Below are positions 1-58,139 of a stretch of DNA of 58,139 nucleotides, in pieces. This DNA is from a virus, in IMG/VR virus record IMGVR_UViG_3300045988_055482, positions 1 to 58,139 of that record. One strand, given 5' to 3'. How positions within the stretch are numbered: the first letter of the stretch is position 1; the number at the start of each line of letters is the position of its first letter. The notes beneath the pieces are model-generated. The model was not told where the DNA came from. It saw only the letters and a list, made by a program, of their open reading frames with translations, and did not search any database. The position numbers and the translations under genes are program-made.

Positions 1-55
1 GTTCCAAAAGTAAATATATTTCTTCTGCCATCTTTCTTAGCAAAGTCGTATAGTG
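1..55. repeat. Terminal direct repeat: 1-55 is identical to 58085-58139 (closed circular contig overlap)
   Basis: The same 55-mer (gttccaaaagtaaatat...gtcgtatagtg) is read at both ends. It lies inside an ORF that stays in frame across the junction. Confidence 0.95.
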
Positions 56-571: not shown

Positions 572-1849
572 CTATTGGTTTACTGTAATGTCTCTATCAC
601 TATAAAGAAACTTAGAGAGCTTTAGTCTTTGTATATGAGCATCACCCTCAGAGTATTCATCTGTAATGTGTGTCACAAAGAACCAATCGCTCAGCTTAAG
701 TATTTTCTCATAATACTTAGTACAAGCTGTAAGTTCCCATACTCCTGCATTGAGAGTAAACATCACCCTATCCCCTACAGACAATGATTTAGGCTTTAGA
801 GGCTCTACAGTGACACTATAGACTACTTTCCTACGAGAGTTAATTAAGCGCCTTATAGACGTTCTATAGAGCTGTTCTGTGGCTTTTAACCTATCTGAGT
901 CAGTAATCTCTCTGTTATTCTCTGCGATGGACTGTGTGTCATTATCTGTAACAGTACCCCAATACAATTCTCCTGCCTCTAAAGCAATACCCTCTTCATC
1001 CATTACAGCAAATTCATCACCAATAATTTCAGGAGCAAACACAGGGAGCTGAGGATAGTCATAAGACCTTTGTGAGTTTACCTTGTTACCTGTCTTAATC
1101 ACAGGAAATCCTTTAAGCATGAGTTTAGGGTTATGGAAAATATCTCTAAGAGTAAGAGAACTAGCACCACTATCTGATTTATCTGACATAGCCACAGCGA
1201 TGTTTACAGTGTCTTCATAGTTTTCCTCTACGTCATCAAGTGATACTAAGTTATTATACTCATTGATTAGGATGTCTCTCTTCTCTCCAAAGATACCAAA
1301 CTCAATCAAGTAAGGGTCTATTCTGCTTACCCTCCAATAAAGAGAAGTAGTCTTTTCACACACTTTAGTAAGGAACTCAAGGAATGTTTCATTAGAAAAC
1401 TCATACTCAATAAGGTTTTTCTCTGCATAGTCATCTAAGTAGGTTATCTTAAAATCATTCAGTAAGTCATCCTTGTGTTGCTCATTACTCCAATACCCCA
1501 TAGCTTGAGTTACAGCAGAGACTACAGAACGTGCTTTTACTGTTACGTTTGTAGGAAGTGTTCTCTTATCCAGTCTTCCAATAACATGTGAAGTTCTTAC
1601 CTGAACAGTCATTTCCTTAAAATTATTGGTCTTATCTCCTACATACCCTCTGTACACCCAATCATCTGTAGAAAGTACAATGTGGGAACTCCCTGTTAGA
1701 TGTTTAGTGTAGCTTATAGGCAAGGTAAGTGTGATAGAGGGAACTTCCATTAGAGAGTATTCCAAAGAGATATTTCCTAAGAAGTGGTCTTTTGGAATAA
1801 CCATTGAACCTAAACCAGAACGCTCTGTATTCTCAATATAACCAATCAT
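572..1849 (-). CDS. Tail tip / baseplate protein (Tal-like)
   Basis: 425-aa ORF two genes downstream of the tape measure, with ATGA overlap to the upstream gene. Function is inferred from position only. Confidence 0.5.
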   Translation of the reverse strand: MIGYIENTERSGLGSMVIPKDHFLGNISLEYSLMEVPSITLTLPISYTKHLTGSSHIVLSTDDWVYRGYVGDKTNNFKEMTVQVRTSHVIGRLDKRTLPTNVTVKARSVVSAVTQAMGYWSNEQHKDDLLNDFKITYLDDYAEKNLIEYEFSNETFLEFLTKVCEKTTSLYWRVSRIDPYLIEFGIFGEKRDILINEYNNLVSLDDVEENYEDTVNIAVAMSDKSDSGASSLTLRDIFHNPKLMLKGFPVIKTGNKVNSQRSYDYPQLPVFAPEIIGDEFAVMDEEGIALEAGELYWGTVTDNDTQSIAENNREITDSDRLKATEQLYRTSIRRLINSRRKVVYSVTVEPLKPKSLSVGDRVMFTLNAGVWELTACTKYYEKILKLSDWFFVTHITDEYSEGDAHIQRLKLSKFLYSDRDITVNQ

Positions 1850-45361: not shown

Positions 45362-46261
45362 ATGATAACCTTAGATGGATTCAAAAATTATATTCTACTT
45401 CGTAGAGATGCTTTTGAGTATAAACATGACTTGAATGAGCTTAAGAAGAACCCTTTGTATAGGAAACACTTTCCTAATAACCTGAAATACTTAGATGATA
45501 CTTCTCAAACTCTTATTAGAACTTTGAATAATCATCCTGTACCTCTTAGAGATAAGTTGCTTACTGTTCTTGTGTACCGTGTTGTAGGTGATAAAAAGGT
45601 CGTTAGACGCTATGCAAACAAGAAGGGGGTCTATACCCTTAAGGAGCTAGAAAAACTCGCTACAGCGCTTAATAAGGACTCTCTGAGGCTCTTAAATAGA
45701 TACTCTACTCCACTAGCAAGAAAAGGTATAACTGGTCTTAGTAGAGGTGAGTTTCTCTTGGCTGTATCCTGTGACTTCTTAGATAAGTTGCCAAAGGATA
45801 ACTTCTACAAGTGGAAGATTTCTGAAATAGCTAGACAGTTTGTGGAGTTTGAGAAGGTGTATGGCATCAAATATGCAATGGCTTATCAATTAGCTTCTGA
45901 TATTAGTTATATTAATGAGCTTAATGTTAAAGTGGACTTTATCAAGACTATTCCTGAGAATGTGAGGGAAATGTTTTCTTATATAGCAGGAAAGCCTTAT
46001 AGACTTAAAGATTATGAGAAATTTACCTATGAAATGATGGATTGGTATAGTAAGCAAGAGTTTCTTGAGAATAAGGAGAGATTAGTTCTACCTCATGACA
46101 TTACACAGATGCTTATTGGTTATAGGTACTACTCAATGAGTTCAGGAGTTATATCAAGGTTTAGACAAGAAAAGAAACCAAAAAACCTCACAAGAGGTAT
46201 TGTTATTGCAAGGAGCATATATGACTTTTACACACAAAGTATGGGTACTAAAGAGGATTGA
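45362..46261 (+). CDS. Hypothetical protein
   Basis: 299-aa ORF, RBS AGGAGGG. Confidence 0.65.
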   Translation: MITLDGFKNYILLRRDAFEYKHDLNELKKNPLYRKHFPNNLKYLDDTSQTLIRTLNNHPVPLRDKLLTVLVYRVVGDKKVVRRYANKKGVYTLKELEKLATALNKDSLRLLNRYSTPLARKGITGLSRGEFLLAVSCDFLDKLPKDNFYKWKISEIARQFVEFEKVYGIKYAMAYQLASDISYINELNVKVDFIKTIPENVREMFSYIAGKPYRLKDYEKFTYEMMDWYSKQEFLENKERLVLPHDITQMLIGYRYYSMSSGVISRFRQEKKPKNLTRGIVIARSIYDFYTQSMGTKED

Positions 46262-47755: not shown

Positions 47756-48045
47756 ATGTTAAATCATCAAGATGAGTATATAAGTTAATAAATGAAAAGT
47801 TTGGTATAGTAGGTAAACCAAAAGTAGCTACATATAAATGCTATGGTTGCACTGAGTATAGGGGCATTGTGGTTGAGCTTCATGGATATGATACTAATTC
47901 AAGATTAATATTTTTAGCAGACAACCAAATGGAATGCTTTCATAGATTAACTTCAGAATTGGATAGTGAACATCTGCCTTGTTGTGTATGGATTACTAGA
48001 TACACTGATAACTACCTAGATATACACAGAGGATTTTATATATAA
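47756..48045 (+). pseudogene. Frameshifted fourth paralog of 47450..47746
   Basis: ATG 47756 after GAGGTG gives MLNHQDEYIS, then a stop at 47786. The -1 frame is open from 47776 (VYKLINEKFGIVGKPKVATYKCYGCTEYRGIVVELHGYD...HRGFYI, stop 48045). The joined product parallels MSNKEYVLSVIKDKYIITKPP... Confidence 0.55.
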
Positions 48046-48048
48046 AAT

Positions 48049-48075
48049 AAAAAGAGCCAATTAAGGCTCTTTTTA
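48049..48075. terminator. Bidirectional terminator between the convergent arms
   Basis: aaaaagagcc-aattaa-ggctcttttt. Flanked by an A-run and a T-run. Confidence 0.7.
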
Positions 48076-48903
48076 TTTTTGTTCTTGATTCTCTGTGAAC
48101 TTAAGGCAATCAGGTAGGTCTTTACCTTCTACAATAGGTACATACTCTACTTTAAACTGGTGAAGTCTAAATACACCGCTTGCAGAGTTATCTGGAACTA
48201 CTCTTACCTTTATATATTGACCTTTAGGTACTATAATGGTATCACTCATTTCCATAGCACCATCTGTAACACCCATCATTTGCCAATGCACAGAACGTTG
48301 CTTAAGCATATCTGTGGTATAGGATTCTCCACTGTGATAAACTACAATCTGCATTGTGTTATCTTCACTGGCTTTTAGTGTAGTACCATCAGCACACCAT
48401 CTTAGAAATACTCTATACTGTCTATCTGTGAGTCTTCTTCTTTGGTCATCATTCTCAAAGTCTACCCCTGTAGTAGAATCCATATATAGGGAAACCTCAT
48501 ATTCTTTAGTGATAGAAGTATAGAATGTAGAAGATGATACAGCAGAGTTACGAGAATAGTTTGTGTGAACTTTACCCATATCTCCAATAGAGGCTACATA
48601 TTCACCCATACACTGTACCATATCCCACAATGCACAGATATTCTCAATATAGTGATTAAGTTGGCATGTGAGTTTTCTCAATAGTGAACCAAAGAACTTA
48701 GGATTGTAGCACTTCTGTGAATCTGCCATACAAGCATATCTACCAATACCTTTATTATTCTCATCCACAAGACCATCACAGTCAGCAATAGGAATATGGT
48801 CACAGTCACAGCTATCATACCAGCAATGCTTTTCAGCTTTATCTTTATAACTTGTAAGAGAGGCTTCATTTAATCGTGTATCTTTATTATCAATGTAACT
48901 CAT
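48073..48903 (-). CDS. Cys-module distal tail / receptor-binding candidate
   Basis: 276 aa. CWYDSCDCDHIPIADCDG...YACMADSQKC...LTCQ...ICALWDMVQC. Confidence 0.55.
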   Translation of the reverse strand: MSYIDNKDTRLNEASLTSYKDKAEKHCWYDSCDCDHIPIADCDGLVDENNKGIGRYACMADSQKCYNPKFFGSLLRKLTCQLNHYIENICALWDMVQCMGEYVASIGDMGKVHTNYSRNSAVSSSTFYTSITKEYEVSLYMDSTTGVDFENDDQRRRLTDRQYRVFLRWCADGTTLKASEDNTMQIVVYHSGESYTTDMLKQRSVHWQMMGVTDGAMEMSDTIIVPKGQYIKVRVVPDNSASGVFRLHQFKVEYVPIVEGKDLPDCLKFTENQEQK

Positions 48904-48911
48904 AATAACTC

Positions 48912-49928
48912 CTAAACTGTATCTAACCTAGAATATGAATTTGATGGGTAAGGGTTTTTCTTGCTCAGTGTTCTTCCATAAGCAAACATACCGAATCTAA
49001 TGTCAGTAATATTAAACGTAATAAACCCTTTTTCCTCACTACCTACTTTTAGAGGTATTTTGGCTTGTTCCATTGAGTCAATTTCACCTTTACTTAGTTT
49101 GTGCATATACTGTGTTACTTTAAAATCAACAACTTCATAATACATAAGGTATGCTTCAATATGAATACTACACTTACCTTGGTTATCCCAATCAGTTGTA
49201 TAAACAAATCTTATTGAAACACCATCATCTAAGGGGTATTCATAATTGTTAGAAATTGATTCTTTGGTAATATCAAGTTTAATTATACGATTATTATTAC
49301 GAGTATAAGTGTTACTAATAGTAGAGTCTTTATGTTTTACTTCATATATACAATCAAACTCAAGAATGGATACTCCTATATCTGAAGCTGGAACAGTTCC
49401 ATCATTTTTAACCCCATAATAGTTGTTACCACTAACATCGTTGAATAAAGTATTAGGTGTAATTCTAATAAGGTTTCCTACAACATTGCTACTAGAAGTA
49501 TCATAAGGATATTGAGAAGCAGTTTTTTCTCTATAATCCTCATGCTCTAATTTGACTACTCTTTCCTTGATACCACTAGAGTCATTTAATGGCAGAACAA
49601 CAGAGTTACCATCAGATATTTTAAGGATATTGTTTTCTAAGGACAATGTTTGGTTTTTAGCTATAACTTTACTAGAGATAACATTATCATTAGTTATTGA
49701 AATACCATCTCCAGCTTTATAGGTTCTTCCTTGACCATTCACTTGAAGCCATTCAGCTCTATCAGGAGATAAAGCATAGAGGTTTCCATCTGGTGTTCTG
49801 TATAAATGGTCATAATCACCCAAGAAAGGGTCAGGCAATACATCCACAGGAGCAATCCAAGTATCTTTACTTGCTAGACACTCACTACAGAATGTTTTAG
49901 GGTTTCCCCCACAAGAATAGCAACTCAT
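48912..49928 (-). CDS. Tail fibre-like protein
   Basis: N-terminal MSCYSCGGNPKTFCSECL. QTLSLENNILKISDGNSVVLPL matches QTLSLEGNTLSISNGNSVELPT in the 578-aa fibre. Confidence 0.55.
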   Translation of the reverse strand: MSCYSCGGNPKTFCSECLASKDTWIAPVDVLPDPFLGDYDHLYRTPDGNLYALSPDRAEWLQVNGQGRTYKAGDGISITNDNVISSKVIAKNQTLSLENNILKISDGNSVVLPLNDSSGIKERVVKLEHEDYREKTASQYPYDTSSSNVVGNLIRITPNTLFNDVSGNNYYGVKNDGTVPASDIGVSILEFDCIYEVKHKDSTISNTYTRNNNRIIKLDITKESISNNYEYPLDDGVSIRFVYTTDWDNQGKCSIHIEAYLMYYEVVDFKVTQYMHKLSKGEIDSMEQAKIPLKVGSEEKGFITFNITDIRFGMFAYGRTLSKKNPYPSNSYSRLDTV

Positions 49929-49929
49929 A

Positions 49930-50172
49930 TTATCCTCCTTTTAGTTTATCTAATTCTTTAGTAAGCCAATCAATTTGTTTGATTAGGTTTTTGTTAATGC
50001 ACCACTGTGAGTAGGCAAATTTGGCTGTCTGGTCTACAATTTCACACATTTGGCTATCCCTGAGAACTAGAGCGTGCATTTTTATTTTATCATCATTCTG
50101 TACTAAGAGTGATTGGCAAGCTGTCTTACCAACTACTATATCTTCACACTGACAGTTTACACAATCTGACAT
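49930..50172 (-). CDS. Small protein consisting of the Cys module alone
   Basis: 80 aa. MSDCVNCQCED...ACQ...QMCE...QWC plus a short coiled coil. Confidence 0.55.
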   Translation of the reverse strand: MSDCVNCQCEDIVVGKTACQSLLVQNDDKIKMHALVLRDSQMCEIVDQTAKFAYSQWCINKNLIKQIDWLTKELDKLKGG

Positions 50173-51474
50173 TTATTTCTCCTTAAAACAGTCAAAGTCA
50201 CAATCGAGAAGGCCACACTTCTTAATTGGGGGTAGAGGTCTTTCAGGAATATGTAAGTCTAGCACTTCACCTTTGAAAGTGTTACCAAAGAACTCCATAA
50301 CATAATCTGAACCATCTGGTGTTTCACCATATTGTTTACCTGCATCAGGATGTCCTCCTAGAATCTCAAAGTCAAGCACAGTACCAATACCTGCAAAAAG
50401 CATTGAGCCAACAGGTATAGAAGATTCATTTGATACACTATTACCTGATATGTTATTGAAGTATCCTGAACCATATTGACCTATATCAGCACCATTAGGA
50501 ATCTTAAAGATTGTTTGGCTATTATTAAACTTAACCAAGAAACCTTGATGATAGTCAATATCATTTACTACACATACAATCATAAGGTTTAAGGGTATTC
50601 CCTCATCATCTGTAAAAGTAAAGCTACCCTCTACTCGATATAGGTGGAATATGTTAAAGGCAATACCTCCTGTAGAGCTATACACAGTGATAGATTTAGC
50701 TGATTCATAATCATGGTCATAGAATGTATGAGCATCTGAGCGAATATGGAAGTTTTTAATCTTAACCTCTACATTGACATTCTTACCTGTAGTTGTTTTA
50801 GCTACATGGTTTAGTTTAACCTTTACTCCGGGTTTTAAATCACTACCTACAAACTTGGTAAGAGGATTATCCCCAAACCCAATTCCACCAACAACATAGT
50901 CAACATCATCCTTAGATGTAGCAAAGGAGAACCCTGAGTAGTAATCATAACTACCTCTACCAGATTCCTTATAAGTTCCTGATAGATAAATTCCATCTTT
51001 AGCCTCTGTGGTAGAATCCTTCTTAATTTGTTCTAGTCTTGCTGTATTCTTATTGAGGATTCTAATTTCGTCATTATATATCTCTTTAGCTTTCTTATAT
51101 ATAACATCTATGGATTCATCTTCTCTAAAGGTTATTTCTCTTAAGCGTTTGACTTTCTCTCTATTTCTCTTAGAGGTAATGTCATTAATCACATCCATAG
51201 TGTTATCCATACAGTGTTGAGCTTCACAGACCTTTTTAATCTTTTTCTGTATCATTGTGATTCTATCTATTGTCTGACACAAAGTTGCTATGAGTTTTCT
51301 TGAATGACAATAGATATGACTGATACCTTTTTCTGTGTTACTTGTGATATAGCACTGTTCTGAGTCTCTTACAATATCTCCTGAACGTTTGATATTCTCT
51401 ACTGACCTATTAGATTCACACCAGTTAAGGTCTAGGAGTTTATCATCACACTTACAATTACATGAACCTGACAT
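50173..51474 (-). CDS. Cys-module distal tail / receptor-binding candidate
   Basis: 433 aa. MSGSCNCKCDD..NWCE...EQCY...IYCH...LCQ...VCEAQHC. Confidence 0.55.
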   Translation of the reverse strand: MSGSCNCKCDDKLLDLNWCESNRSVENIKRSGDIVRDSEQCYITSNTEKGISHIYCHSRKLIATLCQTIDRITMIQKKIKKVCEAQHCMDNTMDVINDITSKRNREKVKRLREITFREDESIDVIYKKAKEIYNDEIRILNKNTARLEQIKKDSTTEAKDGIYLSGTYKESGRGSYDYYSGFSFATSKDDVDYVVGGIGFGDNPLTKFVGSDLKPGVKVKLNHVAKTTTGKNVNVEVKIKNFHIRSDAHTFYDHDYESAKSITVYSSTGGIAFNIFHLYRVEGSFTFTDDEGIPLNLMIVCVVNDIDYHQGFLVKFNNSQTIFKIPNGADIGQYGSGYFNNISGNSVSNESSIPVGSMLFAGIGTVLDFEILGGHPDAGKQYGETPDGSDYVMEFFGNTFKGEVLDLHIPERPLPPIKKCGLLDCDFDCFKEK

Positions 51475-51482
51475 AGTACCTC

Positions 51483-52322
51483 CTAGCAGTTTTCACAATC
51501 AATAACACACCCCTGTGTAGAGGTAAAGAATCCAATAGAGATTGTATTTGTAGTCTCTGTATCTACCCAAGAGTCAAAGAATTTGAATAGTTCAATATTA
51601 TTGACACCTGCTGATGCAGAGTATTTAACGTCCTTATTGATGATAATTTCTCTTACATCCCCTGACCAAGCTAAAGCAGGGTCATAGCTCTTCTCAAAGA
51701 CTTTCTCTCCATCTAGCTTAGACACAGAGATGATAGCCTCATTGATAAATCTACCTTTCTTACCTACATATGAGATATTAGAGAAAGTAACTTTATCAAT
51801 GTGTGTTTTAATATCCCCAGTCTTCTCTAATGAGGTTGTATAGTGTACTTTACCTGTGATTGTACCTTCACCTTGAGAAGTTCCATTAGCATATTTATCC
51901 CACTTAAGTTTAAATGAACCATCTTTGTTAATATCAACTAACTTAACTCTTCCAGAAGACATTACTTGCTTCATAGAAATAGCTATATTCTCCACAGTAG
52001 TTCCCTTTAAGAGCCCTAGAATCTCTGTTAGCTGAGCATTCTGACAATTAGCTGTTGAACAAAGGCTATCTACTTTTCTCTCTAAACAATCTACTGCTTT
52101 AAGAATATAGCATACAAAGTTTATGATATTTGTAAAAACACACCAGACAGCATAAAATGCTTGTCTGATGGCTTCTTGTACATTACACCATTCTGAAACA
52201 GAGATTTTACGCATTGCTGGTCTGATTTTAATGTCATTTAGTTCATATAACTTAGAGCAATTCTCTAGAGAAGGCTCAACTTTTTCACATTCACAGTTCT
52301 TGCTCAAACAGTTATTTGACAT
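51483..52322 (-). CDS. Cys-module distal tail / receptor-binding candidate
   Basis: 279 aa. MSNNCLSKNCECEK...ENC...EWC...VWC...VCY...DCL...LCSTANC. Ends QGCVIDCENC. Confidence 0.55.
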   Translation of the reverse strand: MSNNCLSKNCECEKVEPSLENCSKLYELNDIKIRPAMRKISVSEWCNVQEAIRQAFYAVWCVFTNIINFVCYILKAVDCLERKVDSLCSTANCQNAQLTEILGLLKGTTVENIAISMKQVMSSGRVKLVDINKDGSFKLKWDKYANGTSQGEGTITGKVHYTTSLEKTGDIKTHIDKVTFSNISYVGKKGRFINEAIISVSKLDGEKVFEKSYDPALAWSGDVREIIINKDVKYSASAGVNNIELFKFFDSWVDTETTNTISIGFFTSTQGCVIDCENC

Positions 52323-52327
52323 ATCAG

Positions 52328-52531
52328 TTACTCATTTTCTTTGTTATACTTAACACTTGAGATACCAATAAGAGTACCTAGTAAAGCGTTAAAAGCAGTC
52401 ATAATTACGATAGTTGTGGTCATGTCATACCCTAGTTGCACACCTACAATATTCACAAAAGTGATAATAGCAGGAAGGGCAATTAGCACAACATACTTAA
52501 GAATATCATATACTTGATTAGATAGTTTCAT
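52328..52531 (-). CDS. Holin (Dp-1 holin-like, 67 aa, two TM segments)
   Basis: YVVLIALPAIITFVNIVGV and TTIVIMTAFNALLGTLIGI, with a charged C-terminus. Confidence 0.6.
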   Translation of the reverse strand: MKLSNQVYDILKYVVLIALPAIITFVNIVGVQLGYDMTTTIVIMTAFNALLGTLIGISSVKYNKENE

Positions 52532-52544
52532 AGTTTATACCTCA

Positions 52545-54281
52545 TTATTTCTTAAAGATACCTGGGATGTTGATGATAATACGTTTATTAAAGATATTGG
52601 AATCAGTTGTAGCATACATTCTTATTACATTAGCTCCCTTATCTACCCAAATAGATGTAGAAACATCTCCTACCCATACTTGAGACTCAATAAGCTCAGC
52701 AGGTTTAGGGGCATTAGCAGGGAGATTAGCAATAACAAATCCTTGACCAACAGCCTTAAGAATCTTAAAGTCTACCTTCAAGATACCTACACCTGTGCTA
52801 CTAGAATAAGTAAGAGTGATTCTAGGAGACCTATCTGTGTCAAAAGTACCTTCTTGAACAATCTCTCTATTAGTAAAAGTTCCTCTATAGACTGTAATAT
52901 CAGTTGCTTTAGCTTCTTGCTTAGTAACAATGTCATTGACTTCCTCTTTAGTGTAAGTTTTAGACTTGTCATAGTAGTTCTCTAAAGCACCATTGATATT
53001 TACATTGTAAGTGTTAGCATCCTCTGTCTCAGTGTGAGTTACAATAACACCTTCTGAATCAGAAGTAACCTTAGTAGGCTTAGCTGTAGAGGCTGTAGGA
53101 AGCTCCACAGAGTTTCCATTAGAGATGCTTAAGGTATTTCCTTCAAGGGATAATGTTTGCTTGTCTTTAGACTCAAGAGCAATAAGTCTAGCTTCATTAT
53201 TTACCCTGATTTCACTAATGTCATGTAAAGCACTAGCTACAGAGCTACCTAAGTCATGCACCTCTTCCTTAAGCTCTGTGTCATTATACACAGTATCTTT
53301 GTCAGGCTTGTTTTCTAAGGCTTCCACTCTATTTCTAAGGGCAGTATCATCATAAGCCACAGAAACAGTATCATTGTCGGTAAACTCAACTTCCTTATTG
53401 TCACCATTGACCATAGTGTAAGTAAGTTTTACTGTGTTACCTTCTCTAGACACACCAACATTAGATACAAAGTTGTCAGTCTTACCTTCTAGTGTAGTGA
53501 CTCTTTCCTTCAAAGCACTATCGTCATAGACTGTATCCTTATCAGGCTTTTCCTCAAGGTTATGGATACGTTCTTCAAGGGCTGTATCTTTCTCTGCAAG
53601 GTCATTTGCTTTACCTTCTAGAGTAGTTACTCTACCTTTTAGTTCTGTATCATCATAGCTAGTTCCTTGTGGTCTTTCCTCTAAGGCTGTAATCTTGCTC
53701 CTAAGCTCACTATCGTCATAGATAGTATCTTTGTCAGGTTTCTCTTCTAAAGCTGTAATACGAGCGTCTGTGTGCGTTCTGAGAGCAGTTAAGTCATTCT
53801 CAACTCCTTGGATTGCACTTTCATTAGCTTTGATACCTTGTTTAACTTCTGTATCATCATAGATAGTGTCCTTATCTGCCTTACCTTCTAGAGCTACAAC
53901 TCTATCAGTAAGGTCAGTAAGCTTACCATCTTGCTCTTTGTCTTTGTTTTCAAGTTCTTTCAAAACATTTGCAAGAGTTTCATTGGTTTTTACTGTAAAT
54001 GTTACATCACCATTTTCATTAAGGGTTTCCTTTTCCACAGTGATATAACCTTCACCAAGAACACTAACAACTTGAGGAGTGAGGTCAATAGCATCATAAC
54101 CTGTTCTATCAGGACGAAGTACATAAGCCTTCTTGTCTTTACCATCACCTTCTTTAGGAATAATGTAAATATAATTAAGGTCAGCAGTCTCTTTAGAAGG
54201 AAGTTCATTTACAACCTTAACAATAGAGTCACGTTTTACTAACTCTTTTAAGCATTCAACCTCAATTTTTACCTTAGTCAT
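52545..54281 (-). CDS. Tail fibre with a repetitive coiled-coil shaft
   Basis: 578 aa. Five or more repeats of LE(E/G)K.DKDT(I/V)YDD(S/T)(E/A)L(K/R). Confidence 0.7.
   Translation of the reverse strand: MTKVKIEVECLKELVKRDSIVKVVNELPSKETADLNYIYIIPKEGDGKDKKAYVLRPDRTGYDAIDLTPQVVSVLGEGYITVEKETLNENGDVTFTVKTNETLANVLKELENKDKEQDGKLTDLTDRVVALEGKADKDTIYDDTEVKQGIKANESAIQGVENDLTALRTHTDARITALEEKPDKDTIYDDSELRSKITALEERPQGTSYDDTELKGRVTTLEGKANDLAEKDTALEERIHNLEEKPDKDTVYDDSALKERVTTLEGKTDNFVSNVGVSREGNTVKLTYTMVNGDNKEVEFTDNDTVSVAYDDTALRNRVEALENKPDKDTVYNDTELKEEVHDLGSSVASALHDISEIRVNNEARLIALESKDKQTLSLEGNTLSISNGNSVELPTASTAKPTKVTSDSEGVIVTHTETEDANTYNVNINGALENYYDKSKTYTKEEVNDIVTKQEAKATDITVYRGTFTNREIVQEGTFDTDRSPRITLTYSSSTGVGILKVDFKILKAVGQGFVIANLPANAPKPAELIESQVWVGDVSTSIWVDKGANVIRMYATTDSNIFNKRIIINIPGIFKK
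53246..53921 (-). repeat. In-frame tandem repeats encoding the fibre shaft
   Basis: ALEGKADKDTIYDDTEVK, ALEEKPDKDTIYDDSELR, ALEERPQGTSYDDTELK, NLEEKPDKDTVYDDSALK and ALENKPDKDTVYNDTELK in the translation. Confidence 0.7.
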
Positions 54282-55275
54282 TATTTTCTCCTCTATGTAA
54301 TTTAACTACACCATTATTATTCACAGTGAATGTTCCACCTGTAACCATTACACCATCTTTATCTAGGTAGTACCAACCATCAGCACCTTTAACCATGTGG
54401 TCAGTCTTCATGTCACCTTTATCTGCATCAAGGTAGTACCATTTGTCATCATCCTTAAGCCAGCCAGTCTTCATAGCTCCACCTTTAAGGAAGTAGTACC
54501 ATTTGCTGTTAATTTTCTTCCAACCATTTTCTACCATAGCTCCATTATCATCTAGATAGTACCATGAGCCATCTGTGTGTTTTAACCACTTGTTAGCATA
54601 CATATAGCCACTACCATCAAAGTAGTACCACACATCATTAATCTTAGACCATTTGTTTTTAGGGTAAGAACCATCTGCATATTGATACCACCATCCTGTG
54701 GAATTTTTCTTCCACCCTTCAGTAATAGTAGTATCTTCAAGCATATCTTGGACTGTGCTTCCCATAGATTGATAATGTTTAATCTTAGCAATAGCATAGT
54801 CTCTAAGACTATTATTAGTTCCTCCATGAAGGGCTAGTGAACGAGCAGGACATGAAGTGCTTGAAAACTCATTGTGGAACTTAATATTTGAGTAGTTAGG
54901 AGTATCTCCATAATATGTCATATCCTCAGCTATTTGTCTAAGTACCATATTCTCATTTGCAAGAAACTCAGCATCCGTAGTACCAAACTGTTGACACACT
55001 TCATAGCCAATAGAGTTCATGTTACCATCATAGTTAGCTGTTGACCAAGAACAATTATAAGTATCTTCTACTCTAGCAATAGTGTATCTATTGATATAAT
55101 AGTGAGCAAATCCCTTATCAGCTTCATCATTATCATATCGTGATTGAAGCCAATCAATGTATTTTTCAGGAGACATTCTTCCTGCATCATTGTGCATGAT
55201 GTAATACTTGGGCTTTTCAGTAGGTCTTCTTCCTGCAATACCTTGGAAGATAGACTTATTTATTATGTTTACCAT
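54274..55275 (-). CDS. Endolysin: N-acetylmuramoyl-L-alanine amidase (Amidase_2) with a choline-binding repeat domain
   Basis: YYIMHNDAG...GYEVCQQ...HNEFSSTSCP, then about 6 repeats of GW.K....WYY(F/L)...G.M. ATG 55275 lies 7 nt after GAGGAG. Confidence 0.85.
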   Translation of the reverse strand: MVNIINKSIFQGIAGRRPTEKPKYYIMHNDAGRMSPEKYIDWLQSRYDNDEADKGFAHYYINRYTIARVEDTYNCSWSTANYDGNMNSIGYEVCQQFGTTDAEFLANENMVLRQIAEDMTYYGDTPNYSNIKFHNEFSSTSCPARSLALHGGTNNSLRDYAIAKIKHYQSMGSTVQDMLEDTTITEGWKKNSTGWWYQYADGSYPKNKWSKINDVWYYFDGSGYMYANKWLKHTDGSWYYLDDNGAMVENGWKKINSKWYYFLKGGAMKTGWLKDDDKWYYLDADKGDMKTDHMVKGADGWYYLDKDGVMVTGGTFTVNNNGVVKLHRGENND

Positions 55276-55603
55276 GTTTACTCTCCTCAATTAGCTTTTC
55301 CTCTAACTTTTTATCAAGACCATGAATATAGTGATTACCTTGAAGTACATCAAAGTATTCTTTCACAATAGGTCTAGTCATTTCCCATTTCTCTTTTGCA
55401 GTAAACTCTGTAGCATTGTAAATCTGTAGGTACTCAGTACGAATACTTGAACGTTTTGTACCTTTAGCCATATCCATCAACTGTGCTCTCTTGTTATTTA
55501 ACATTACTACTCCAAGACCACAAGCTGTTGTAATGAGTAAGGTTAAAGCAGAAAGTATTGATTGGTCTTCTACTAGCTTTAGAATTAATTTCTCAATTCC
55601 CAT
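55256..55603 (-). CDS. Membrane protein, possible second holin
   Basis: One TM segment, ILSALTLLITTACGLGVVML. ATG 55603 follows the upstream stop. Confidence 0.45.
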   Translation of the reverse strand: MGIEKLILKLVEDQSILSALTLLITTACGLGVVMLNNKRAQLMDMAKGTKRSSIRTEYLQIYNATEFTAKEKWEMTRPIVKEYFDVLQGNHYIHGLDKKLEEKLIEESKHGKHNK

Positions 55604-55831: not shown

Positions 55832-56908
55832 TTACCTCACATAAACATCAAAAGATGTCTTATCATTTGTAGTGTACACCTTACCTTTAAATCCAAAAGG
55901 TGTATTATAAGTTGCACCTATTACTTCTCCATATGCTTTAGGAGCAGATAACACAATATTACCATCTCCATCAGATAAGAACCCATAGGCATTGTAACCT
56001 AGCCCTAATACCTTAACATTCTTAGGAAAAGAGCTTCCAGATGAGTAAGTCCACTCAAAGTTAGCCTCTTTAATTCTCCCTAGAGAGATAAGCTGAGCTA
56101 ATGAGTAAATCTTCTGTGTACCTGATTGGTCAAGTCCATCAGATGTTTTATCTGGGAATGAATCATAACCATTAGGCGTTTGATACCTCTTCTTATCCTC
56201 TTTCCTAGGTGTAGTAGAATAGTCATCTAGCTTCTTCACACAAGACACAGGTATGTAAGCCACAGAACCATCATATTTATCATATATGAGCCATTCTCCA
56301 TTAATCTTACCTGATACCTTATTACACTTGAAGAAAGTTTCCACAGTTGTACTATCAGAAGGGGATTTAACACCCTCCACCTTATCACAGATGATTTCAA
56401 AGAAATCCCTAGCAATAGTCTTTTCTGTTTCTTTTGCATTACCTACTAGAGCACCATCAGAACTTAAAGGCTCATAATTGTCTTGACTCTTTATACGAAC
56501 AATTCTGTGTATAGTATTACCATAACCATAAATAGCTCTTCTATGTTCAATAACACATTGACCCTGATAGTTTTGTTCAATAATTAAGGCATTAGACAAG
56601 TCTCCACCACCATACACAAATGTATGACCATATACAGTGCCATCTCCTCCACCGGGTTCAGTAGTTGAGAATATATCTCCAACTTTTAGAACCATCCCTG
56701 AGGTATAAGGTATAACATCAGCCCATTGGGAAATATCTCCCCTAGTACCTATTTCATTACCATTACCCCATAACTCAAACCCAAATTGGCTAGAGACATA
56801 TAATACTAAGTCTACACACTGGTATGGGTTATCAGGTGGTTGAGGGTAATTATCATAATCAAGACATTGTCCTACATATTGTTGGGCTATCTTATAAGCA
56901 TTTATCAT
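55832..56908 (-). CDS. CHAP-domain peptidoglycan endopeptidase
   Basis: Catalytic Cys in PYQCVDLVLY, His in VYGHTFVYGG, then IIEQNY. Has a 200-aa C-terminal domain. Confidence 0.75.
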   Translation of the reverse strand: MINAYKIAQQYVGQCLDYDNYPQPPDNPYQCVDLVLYVSSQFGFELWGNGNEIGTRGDISQWADVIPYTSGMVLKVGDIFSTTEPGGGDGTVYGHTFVYGGGDLSNALIIEQNYQGQCVIEHRRAIYGYGNTIHRIVRIKSQDNYEPLSSDGALVGNAKETEKTIARDFFEIICDKVEGVKSPSDSTTVETFFKCNKVSGKINGEWLIYDKYDGSVAYIPVSCVKKLDDYSTTPRKEDKKRYQTPNGYDSFPDKTSDGLDQSGTQKIYSLAQLISLGRIKEANFEWTYSSGSSFPKNVKVLGLGYNAYGFLSDGDGNIVLSAPKAYGEVIGATYNTPFGFKGKVYTTNDKTSFDVYVR

Positions 56909-57399: not shown

Positions 57400-58139
57400 C
57401 TAGTTAATGTGACTATACTTTAAAAAGTTTCTTAATGTAACTTTAGCTTCTCCTAAAGCATACACAGTGAATACCTTCTCTCCTGCGCTGAATAAGGCAT
57501 CACGCTGAGCATTGTTAAGATACCAAGCACAATACATAAGGTCATAACCCTCTAGGGGTTTATTATTAGGAAATATACCTTCACCACTTGAGTCATCACC
57601 TATCCAGTTACATCCCCATTGTCTTCTAAAGATTCCTGTAAGGTCTATCTCAGAGGTATCTCCTGTATGCTCATTTGTAGCTGATACTACTAAGTGAACA
57701 TCTGTAATAGGGTTTACTCTACCACCATCACACCCCCCTTTATCTTGCTCCACAACAAACTTTAAGAACCATCTCTGGAATCTATCTAGGTCAGATGGAA
57801 CAAGCACACGGAAAGAAGCCGATTTAGAGTTCTTATTAATAGGAACTACAGATTCAGGGTCTCTCTTATCATCTTCCTTAGATGCCTCAGTTCCATCTAG
57901 CACAGTCTTAATGAAGTCCTTATGCTTGTTAGCAAAGTCAATACGTTCTTGTAGCTTATTACCGGGTACACCACCCCAATCGGCTAGGAAACGTGCTGTT
58001 AGCTCAGAAATACCATTACTACTTGTTGCTACCTCTTTGACTACATTATTAAGTCCTTCCTCAGAAAGCATAAACTTAAACTGTGTTCCAAAAGTAAATA
58101 TATTTCTTCTGCCATCTTTCTTAGCAAAGTCGTATAGTG
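57400..58139 (-). CDS. C-terminal part of the junction-spanning tail-associated peptidoglycan hydrolase (see 1..563)
   Basis: The frame stays open upstream of the track ATG at 58071 to the window edge and joins 1..563 in frame. Confidence 0.7.
   Translation of the reverse strand, partial: LYDFAKKDGRRNIFTFGTQFKFMLSEEGLNNVVKEVATSSNGISELTARFLADWGGVPGNKLQERIDFANKHKDFIKTVLDGTEASKEDDKRDPESVVPINKNSKSASFRVLVPSDLDRFQRWFLKFVVEQDKGGCDGGRVNPITDVHLVVSATNEHTGDTSEIDLTGIFRRQWGCNWIGDDSSGEGIFPNNKPLEGYDLMYCAWYLNNAQRDALFSAGEKVFTVYALGEAKVTLRNFLKYSHIN

Follow-up and report, generated by a model that had tools for sequence, protein, structure and literature searches.

The general logic of joining a shared assembly domain to divergent binding heads is already known for phage receptor-binding proteins. 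In branched systems with several such proteins, for example TSP1-4 of CBA120 and gp63.1/gp66 of G7C, N-terminal adaptor domains are common to several tailspikes. In phages of mucosal bacteria, structural proteins are also known to serve as adhesins to host-derived ligands, as exemplified by PblA and PblB of Streptococcus mitis phage SM1, which reach the bacterial surface after phage-mediated lysis, and by Hoc, the Ig-like decoration of the capsid in the 'adherence to mucus' model. Here we describe a cassette of five genes that closes the late operon of a 58-kb uncultured siphophage, IMG/VR record IMGVR_UViG_3300045988_055482, positions 1 to 58,139 (this whole stretch of 58,139 nucleotides is hereafter called the window). 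The cassette lies at 48073 to 52322 on the minus strand, and its genes are named after the lengths of their products in amino acids (aa): g279, g433, g80, g338 and g276. To CBA120 and G7C it is similar by description only, in that adjacent genes combine a common conserved assembly domain with divergent binding domains; however, the heads of those systems are enzymatic tailspikes, whereas here they are lectin-like, and the shared unit here is Cys-rich and helical. The likeness to PblA/PblB and Hoc is also by description only, and their domain families differ from those of the window heads.

We lean, with moderate confidence, to the reading that the four paralogues g279, g433, g80 and g276, which share a single undescribed Cys-rich stalk, would be accessory fibres or adhesins of the virion, two of them with lectin-like heads, the stalk being pinned by metal or by disulfides. 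An earlier note on this DNA, made from the sequence alone, had listed the five open reading frames (ORFs) and had seen a common N-terminal Cys module in four of them (51483..52322, 50173..51474, 49930..50172 and 48073..48903). All five ORFs were found at their positions on the minus strand, and the module is borne out by pairwise, hidden Markov model (HMM) and profile-profile statistics. Its pattern can be written as C-x(1-4)-C-x-C-x(7-9)-C-x(21-23)-C-x14-C(-x9-C); the cysteines C1-C7 are present in g279, g433 and g276, and C1-C6 only in g80. A regular expression for this spacing matches just four of the 287 stop-to-stop ORFs in the window, namely g279, g433, g80 and g276, and when any one of these proteins is shuffled 100,000 times with its composition preserved, the pattern recurs at most 12 times (<=1.2e-4). 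The N-termini of g279 and g433 match each other by BLASTP (E=5e-6), and phmmer cross-matches among family members of g80, g279 and g433 range from 1e-5 to 1e-10. The outlier is g276, as BLASTP of g80 against g276 alone is not significant. Nevertheless, the window g276 is recovered at E=2.5e-6, with each Cys in register, by an HMM of g279, g433, g80 and diverse relatives that contains no g276-family sequence, and an hhalign comparison of the g276-family and g433-family alignments yields E=2.8e-5, the match being limited to the module. Conservation extends to positions other than Cys (N29, I33 and W60 in g279 numbering). The alignment and HMM check that the earlier note had proposed therefore came out in favour of a spacing conserved beyond chance.

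According to the secondary structure of AlphaFold2 (AF2) models of g279 and g433, the module opens at its N-terminus with a knuckle loop (C-x(n)-C-x-C), continues as a helical hairpin and has a long helix with further cysteines. The statement that the module could not be matched to a described family also stands, since nothing was found in Pfam, NCBIfam, PADLOC or the PDB sequences. Its profile retrieved only coiled-coil noise from PDB and Pfam, and the only database trace is a weak match of g279 to one PHROG of unknown function. As NCBIfam and PADLOC returned nothing, a defence or anti-defence reading of the cassette is without support.

The first gene, g279 (51483..52322, minus strand; AF2 model with a mean predicted local distance difference test (pLDDT) score of 84.7), encodes the Cys module, a beta-sandwich head and a C-terminal CxxxCxxC tail, with cysteines at positions 5, 10, 12, 22, 46, 61, 71, 79, 88 and 93, plus 272, 276 and 279. 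The module covers aa 1-105 (52008..52322; module HMM E=2e-31) and is modelled as a knuckle loop at aa 1-18 (C5, C10, C12), a helix at aa 19-42 (C22) and a long helix at aa 45-105 that carries C46, C61, C71, C79, C88 and C93. The head (aa 113-267, 51522..51986) is of the type of the variable domain of BspA, an antigen I/II (AgI/II) adhesin: aa 131-256 match Pfam BspA_v (PF18220) with 31.4 bits, above the cut-off of 25 (E=2.1e-7), and Foldseek aligns the model to the BspA variable domain 5dz8_B with E=1.5e-10, a TM score on the target of 0.75 and a root-mean-square deviation of 2.3 over 131 columns. In BFVD, the model also resembles, at the level of fold only, the 253-aa protein of phage SOCP, which is of the Cp-1/Cp-7 ORF17 type (E=1.5e-6); the same search returned virome records automatically named 'Adhesin protein', 'MucBP domain-containing protein' and 'Glucan-binding protein C'. 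The tail (C272, C276 and C279; 51486..51509) reads CVIDCENC. In many relatives this gene encodes only 120 aa, the module running straight into the tail without a head; therefore, the head of about 160 aa in the window is an insertion between module and tail.

The second gene, g433 (50173..51474, minus strand; mean pLDDT 84.4), has the same plan with a different head. Its cysteines are at positions 5, 7, 9, 19, 41, 56, 66, 83 and 88, all within the module (aa 1-112, 51139..51474, the long helix spanning aa 40-112), and at 301, 420, 425 and 429. The module is followed by a helix (aa 122-152) and an antigen I/II-type V-like beta domain (aa 157-395), which together occupy 50290..51111, and then by a Pro-rich return segment (PERPLPPIKK) and a CxxxxCxxxC tail (50176..50289), in which P410, P413, C420 and C429 are invariant. 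The C-terminus reads CGLLDCDFDC. In the model the return segment is extended and confidently placed, with pLDDT about 87-91 over aa 401-420. The g433 family profile matches the V domain of SspB (2wd6) at E=1.3e-6 over aa 130-413, including the preceding helix and the following Pro segment; thus the unit of helix, V domain and Pro segment known from SspB and SpaP is matched as a whole. By Foldseek the best match of the model is 3ipk, an A3-V-P1 fragment of Streptococcus mutans AgI/II (E=1.8e-8), followed by SspB and Sgo0707; 6tzl (E=7e-7) and 4igb are among the entries matched. The window g433 itself has no Pfam match and does not reach GbpC (PF08363); three of the 19 aligned members of its family match GbpC (best 3.6e-24), as do more distant cassette proteins of two related loci, L079 and L080, and relatives also match BspA_v.

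By Pfam, PDB profile and Foldseek, then, both assigned heads are lectin-like adhesin V domains in place of the depolymerases that the earlier note had considered; no enzymatic fold or family was matched. The same note had called the C-terminal regions unrelated. This holds in so far as the V domains of g279 and g433 belong to two different Pfam families, so that the heads are still unrelated at the level of sequence; it does not hold in that both are identifiable and of antigen I/II type, and that a Cys tail is common to g279, g433 and the relatives of g276.

The window proteins resemble the AgI/II adhesins (SpaP, SspB and BspA) and the glucan-binding protein GbpC in their heads, the g433 head being like those of SspB, SpaP and GbpC, and also in that a helical stalk carries the head at its end and the chain runs back beside it. 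They differ in being phage-encoded, in starting with MS..C and ending in Cys tails, and in having no visible signal peptide, LPXTG anchor, A/P repeat arrays or AgI/II C-terminal domains. Their stalk is made of the Cys-rich module and the Cys tail, whereas in AgI/II an alpha-helix and a polyproline II helix intertwine. Identity of the phage heads to solved V domains is just 11-24%. Since only the V-type head is shared, the window proteins are not members of the AgI/II family proper.

A C-terminal tail of three cysteines is common to g279 and g433 and is found in g276 of relatives. The full extended form, with three additional helix cysteines (C8-C10) and the three-Cys tail, is seen in g279; g433 is without C8, the window g276 has C8 and one tail Cys where relatives have three, and g80 has neither the extra cysteines nor the tail. 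When 210 unique modules were compared, C8-C10 occurred almost only alongside the Cys tail: 56 modules have all ten cysteines and three tail cysteines, 24 have C1-C8 and three tail cysteines, 19 have C9 and C10 with two or three tail cysteines, and about 70 have C1-C7 and no tail, although the sequences are mutually related and these counts are not independent events. C4 is lost only where C7 is also lost. These patterns suggest that the tail may fold onto C8-C10 and that C4 may pair with C7. The chain would leave the long helix, form the head and come back as the short tail, which either coordinated metal or disulfides would fix to C8-C10 of the helix; the head would thus be an insertion borne on the tip of a stalk clamped by cysteines. 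Both the strict C-x-C spacing and the putative zinc knuckle of the adjacent g338 speak for metal, with disulfides as the other candidate.

The remaining three genes differ in what they carry. The 80-aa product of g80 (49930..50172, minus strand; cysteines at 4, 7, 9, 19, 43 and 58) is, as had been noticed before, the module alone, without C7; it is a short form of a family whose members of 154-199 aa add a coiled coil and a C-terminal domain of the Cp-7 ORF16 type. The fourth gene, g338 (48912..49928, minus strand), has no Cys module. Its separate Cys knuckle, recognised by the earlier note, is well founded: the N-terminal CxxC-x7-CxxC (49878..49922) has C3, C6, C14 and C17 invariant in seven diverse members, and by its two invariant CxxC pairs it is a putative zinc knuckle or zinc ribbon. 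The knuckle is part of a conserved N-domain of about 70 aa, which is followed by a variable C-terminal domain, and the protein contains the fibre-type motifs YKAGDGISI and QTLSLENNILKISDGNSVVLP and matches PHROG 20172 (E=5e-4). To count g338 among Cys-rich genes was not justified, because it has 1.8% Cys overall against a background of 1.7%. The last gene, g276 (48073..48903, minus strand), encodes a 26-aa N-terminal extension, the Cys module at aa 27-115 (48559..48825) and a C-domain at aa 116-265 (48109..48558); its cysteines are at 27, 32, 34, 42, (58), 65, 80, 90 and 98, plus 170 and 266, and it has lost two of the three tail cysteines found in relatives. When the g276 and g338 family profiles were compared with PDB sequences, nothing significant was found for the C-terminal domains.

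Relatives of the cassette were retrieved in number from metagenomes. The search with g276 yielded 73 IMG/VR loci, and searches with g433 and with the module yielded many metagenomic proteins on contigs of about 60 kb. An exhaustive profile search of 1.84 billion representatives returned 187 proteins (representative clusters) at E<=1e-3, many of which match the module and others only the Cp-7-type C-terminal domain or the g433 C-terminal columns in the profile. Module-bearing proteins commonly run on into coiled coils and fibre-type motifs. Sample identifiers of the Human Microbiome Project type suggest that the phages with the module, a large clade of uncultured phages of about 60 kb, are of human, probably oral, source. 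Some contigs that carry the g276 family (proteins P0250, P0253 and P0254) reach about 120 kb, or two genome lengths, probably because circular genomes were assembled head-to-tail in duplicate and not because the phages are larger.

About 50 loci cover the region, and their genes follow a fixed order: holin, g279 family (120-304 aa), g433 family (about 430 aa), g80 family (80-199 aa), g338 family (338-797 aa), zero to two module-less proteins of 242-468 aa, and g276 family. The version in the window is the shortest. The idea of a freely swappable array of heads must therefore be given up; there are four paralogues kept in a fixed order across about 50 phage contigs. That the module is the shared unit and better conserved than the attached heads was, on the other hand, confirmed, as mean pairwise identity is 0.77 for the module and 0.59 for the head among g279 relatives, and 0.61 and 0.46, respectively, among g433 relatives. 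The g338 family behaves similarly, with 0.76 at the N-terminus and 0.49 over the rest. The most conserved cassette member is g276, whose identity is 0.80-0.87 and uniform, with 94 clusters all at least 55% identical.

What connects these genes with phage fibres is the second group of described proteins, the appendage proteins of Cp-1, Cp-7, SOCP and EF62phi, whose ORF16-type C-terminus and ORF17 homologues occur on module- or zinc-knuckle-bearing proteins of the window's relatives or next to them. The long forms of g80 and g338 in relatives end in an SGAW..GNINLFGG..ENDLAGG domain, which is the C-terminus of Cp-7 ORF16 ('Appendage') and of its homologues in Cp-1 and SOCP; the same domain is found in Streptococcus equinus podophage proteins annotated 'tail fiber protein' and in the 824-aa protein of Enterococcus phage EF62phi. 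Cp-7 ORF17 (also 'Appendage') and the gene downstream in EF62phi (244 aa) have homologues among the module-less cassette proteins of relatives. The Cp-7 proteins differ in that they lack the Cys module, and ORF16 and ORF17 of Cp-7 have no Cys at all. In L079, a more distant phage with the same synteny, a 474-aa protein combines a GbpC-type V domain, the Cys module and the ORF16-type C-terminus and is followed by an ORF17 homologue (E=1.6e-77), a zinc-knuckle protein and a g276 homologue (E=1e-120). In this protein the module is internal, after the V domain. It is therefore not simply an N-terminal anchor, and the N-terminal position described in the earlier note does not hold throughout.

As a separate observation, proteins as long as 1282 aa (in L001, L003, L025, L079 and others) close with the C-terminal domain of 70 aa (SGAW..GNINLFGG..DG.SFIRTN...TENDLAGG; PHROGs 17155 and 7547), and a gene of the Cp-7 ORF17 type is regularly the next one. 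This looks like a conserved two-gene appendage unit common to streptococcal and enterococcal podophages and these siphophages, though not present in the window. L079 also encodes, at 1559..1759 just before the holin region, a Pro/Lys-rich 66-aa protein with a CCC triplet, adjoining a collagen-like (GxY repeat) fibre protein of 515 aa.

Taking the observed shared module, head identities, synteny and co-occurrence of tail and helix cysteines as the starting point, the cassette might work as follows. The conserved modules would assemble or dock the proteins, possibly with one another, and the more variable lectin-like heads would bind carbohydrate or glycoprotein ligands, candidates being streptococcal cell-wall polysaccharide, plaque glucan and salivary glycoproteins; g338 would use its zinc-knuckle N-domain on a fibre-like body in place of the Cys module. 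The receptor-binding role that the earlier note had given to the heads is made plausible, as regards a fibre or receptor-binding context, by the fusion to the Cp-7 ORF16 domain and by the ORF17 homologues in relatives, from which, together with the architecture, we infer a location in the virion.

Several points weigh against this reading. The virion location comes from architecture and comparison, and the comparison is with relatives, because the window has no Cp-7-type domains: its g80 is truncated, the C-terminus of its g338 is different and there is no ORF17 homologue. None of the cassette gene forms that match Cp-7 ORF16 or ORF17 (long g80, long g338 and module-less proteins of 331-468 aa) was found in the window, the window proteins themselves not having been compared directly with Cp-7. 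The 'Appendage' labels of Cp-7 are depositor annotations, and the L079 module lies C-terminal to its V domain. The proposed proximities of the tail to C8-C10 and of C4 to C7 are read from co-occurrence and helix geometry only. Finally, the host cytoplasm is reducing, so that any disulfides would form only after release from the cell, which the oxidising oral environment would allow.

The main rival is that the proteins are not virion parts but late-expressed soluble adhesins, which would be released at lysis and coat surviving streptococci, debris and oral surfaces, with an ecological or 'moron' function. In its favour, the genes come after the holin and are the very last of the late operon, their heads are domains known from bacterial adhesins (BspA_v, SspB/GbpC-type V and, in relatives, MucBP), and no signal peptides are evident in the sequences, so that release would depend on lysis. 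On the other hand, relatives join the module to appendage domains of the Cp-7 type and have an ORF17-type appendage gene beside it, fibre-like genes (cc578, described below; the collagen-like gene in L079) stand on both sides of the lysis genes, and the cassette is not set apart by any promoter or terminator. The ties to Cp-7-type domains and the flanking fibre-like genes weaken the rival, and we consider it rather unlikely as it stands; the two roles are not exclusive, PblA and PblB being themselves tail-fibre-like.

A comparably small chance is given to the view that the module is merely a self-oligomerising, for example trimerising, stalk and that each paralogue forms an independent homomeric fibre which docks by other means, without a shared docking site or a heteromeric hub. 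Such a stalk would suit a module that is mostly one long helix, that can be internal as in L079 and that is followed by coiled-coil segments in many family members. The headless 80-aa protein and the 120-aa proteins of module and tail are easier to explain as assembly or adaptor subunits, and the retention of four paralogues in fixed order in about 50 genomes also speaks against it. A further picture, which we likewise regard as doubtful, is that the four modules co-assemble on the tail into a single metal- or disulfide-cross-linked hetero-oligomeric hub showing several host-derived adhesin heads (BspA-V, SspB/GbpC-V, and MucBP in relatives). If such a hub existed, an oral streptococcal phage could adhere to plaque glucan or to surfaces coated with salivary glycoproteins in addition to its host, and the virion would bear a copy of the colonisation toolkit of the bacterium on a new kind of Cys-clamped stalk. 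The last reading, that the Cys spacing is a chance or compositional effect among Cys-rich proteins, can draw on the insignificant comparison of g80 with g276 but is already refuted by the leave-one-family-out HMM, the hhalign result, the rarity of the pattern among ORFs and shuffles and the conserved non-Cys positions, and it retains almost no probability.

With respect to earlier work, literature searches found no description of a Cys-rich module with a tail clamp, nor of phage-borne antigen I/II-type V domains, and automated virome annotation already registers similarity to GbpC, adhesin and MucBP. The module represents a new domain family, a widespread Cys-rich stalk absent from the databases searched, and the heads show that phages carry homologues of the V-domain lectin heads used by oral streptococci to colonise teeth and mucosa. 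If the proteins were borne by the virion, they would offer a concrete and testable case of phage adhesion through bacterial adhesin domains. A head held between a helix and a Cys tail clamping back onto it could also serve as a reusable display scaffold. Annotation would profit too, as many virome records name these proteins 'Glucan-binding protein C', which is misleading, or call them 'hypothetical'.

An identical 55-bp direct repeat is present at 1..55 and 58085..58139, and joining the ends of the window restores a gene of 415 aa that spans the junction; we therefore take the window as a complete circular assembly of about 58,084 bp (about 58.08 kb). The junction gene is homologous to the Cp-7 tail protein ORF18, and its counterpart in L001 and L003 carries Pfam Phage_lysozyme2. 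The late arm lies on the minus strand, which it follows from about 22000 to 1 and, across the junction, from 58139 to 48073; the early arm lies on the plus strand and reaches about 48045. The two arms converge at a bidirectional intrinsic terminator (48044..48079, both strands) that overlaps the stop codon of g276 and has a 15-bp stem, AAAATAAAAAGAGCC-AATTAA-GGCTCTTTTTATTTT. This strong terminator follows g276, and no terminator was found between the holin and the cassette. Ribosome-binding sites of the GGAG type precede four of the five cassette genes, and none is clear before g279.

Directly upstream of the cassette is a Dp-1-type holin gene (52328..52531, minus strand; Pfam Phage_holin_Dp1, E=8.8e-13; PHROG 881 holin, E=3e-22), and further upstream is the endolysin gene (54274..55290, minus strand), with Amidase_2 and choline-binding repeats by Pfam. 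Between them lies cc578 (52545..54281, minus strand), which by ORF call, PHROG and phmmer encodes a fibre-like coiled-coil repeat protein of 578 aa, so that the lysis genes are embedded among fibre-like genes. The position of the array beyond the lysis genes at the end of the late arm, which the earlier note had pointed out, is thus correct as to the holin, the endolysin and the closing terminator, but it is not the boundary of the structural region, because fibre-like genes (cc578, and the collagen-like gene in L079) flank the lysis genes on both sides. The 578-aa protein has about six coiled-coil repeats of the form DKDTIYDDxxLK..V..LE.K and shares the motif QTLSLEGNTLSISNGNSVELP with the g338 family. 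Other candidates for wall degradation are a 358-aa CHAP-domain protein (55832..56908, minus strand) and a 425-aa 'tail protein with lysin activity' (PHROG 21524; 572..1849, minus strand).

From the choline-binding endolysin, the host is probably a choline-bearing oral streptococcus of the mitis group. No cultured relative of the phage was identified: among 50,697 phage records, neither megablast with the cassette and with 20 kb of the late arm nor tblastn with g279 and g433 found a match, and the large terminase is only 24% identical to that of the Lactococcus P087-group phages. Scans of 185,579 species-representative bacterial genomes with alignments of two module sub-families gave no confirmed match, and no prophage copies were seen. 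In the early arm, a 299-aa protein (45362..46261, plus strand) has a weak, sub-threshold match to the helical domain of 5-hydroxymethyldeoxyuridine DNA kinase (E=0.005), and relatives encode dUTPase and DHFR nearby, which may be a hint of nucleotide or DNA modification.

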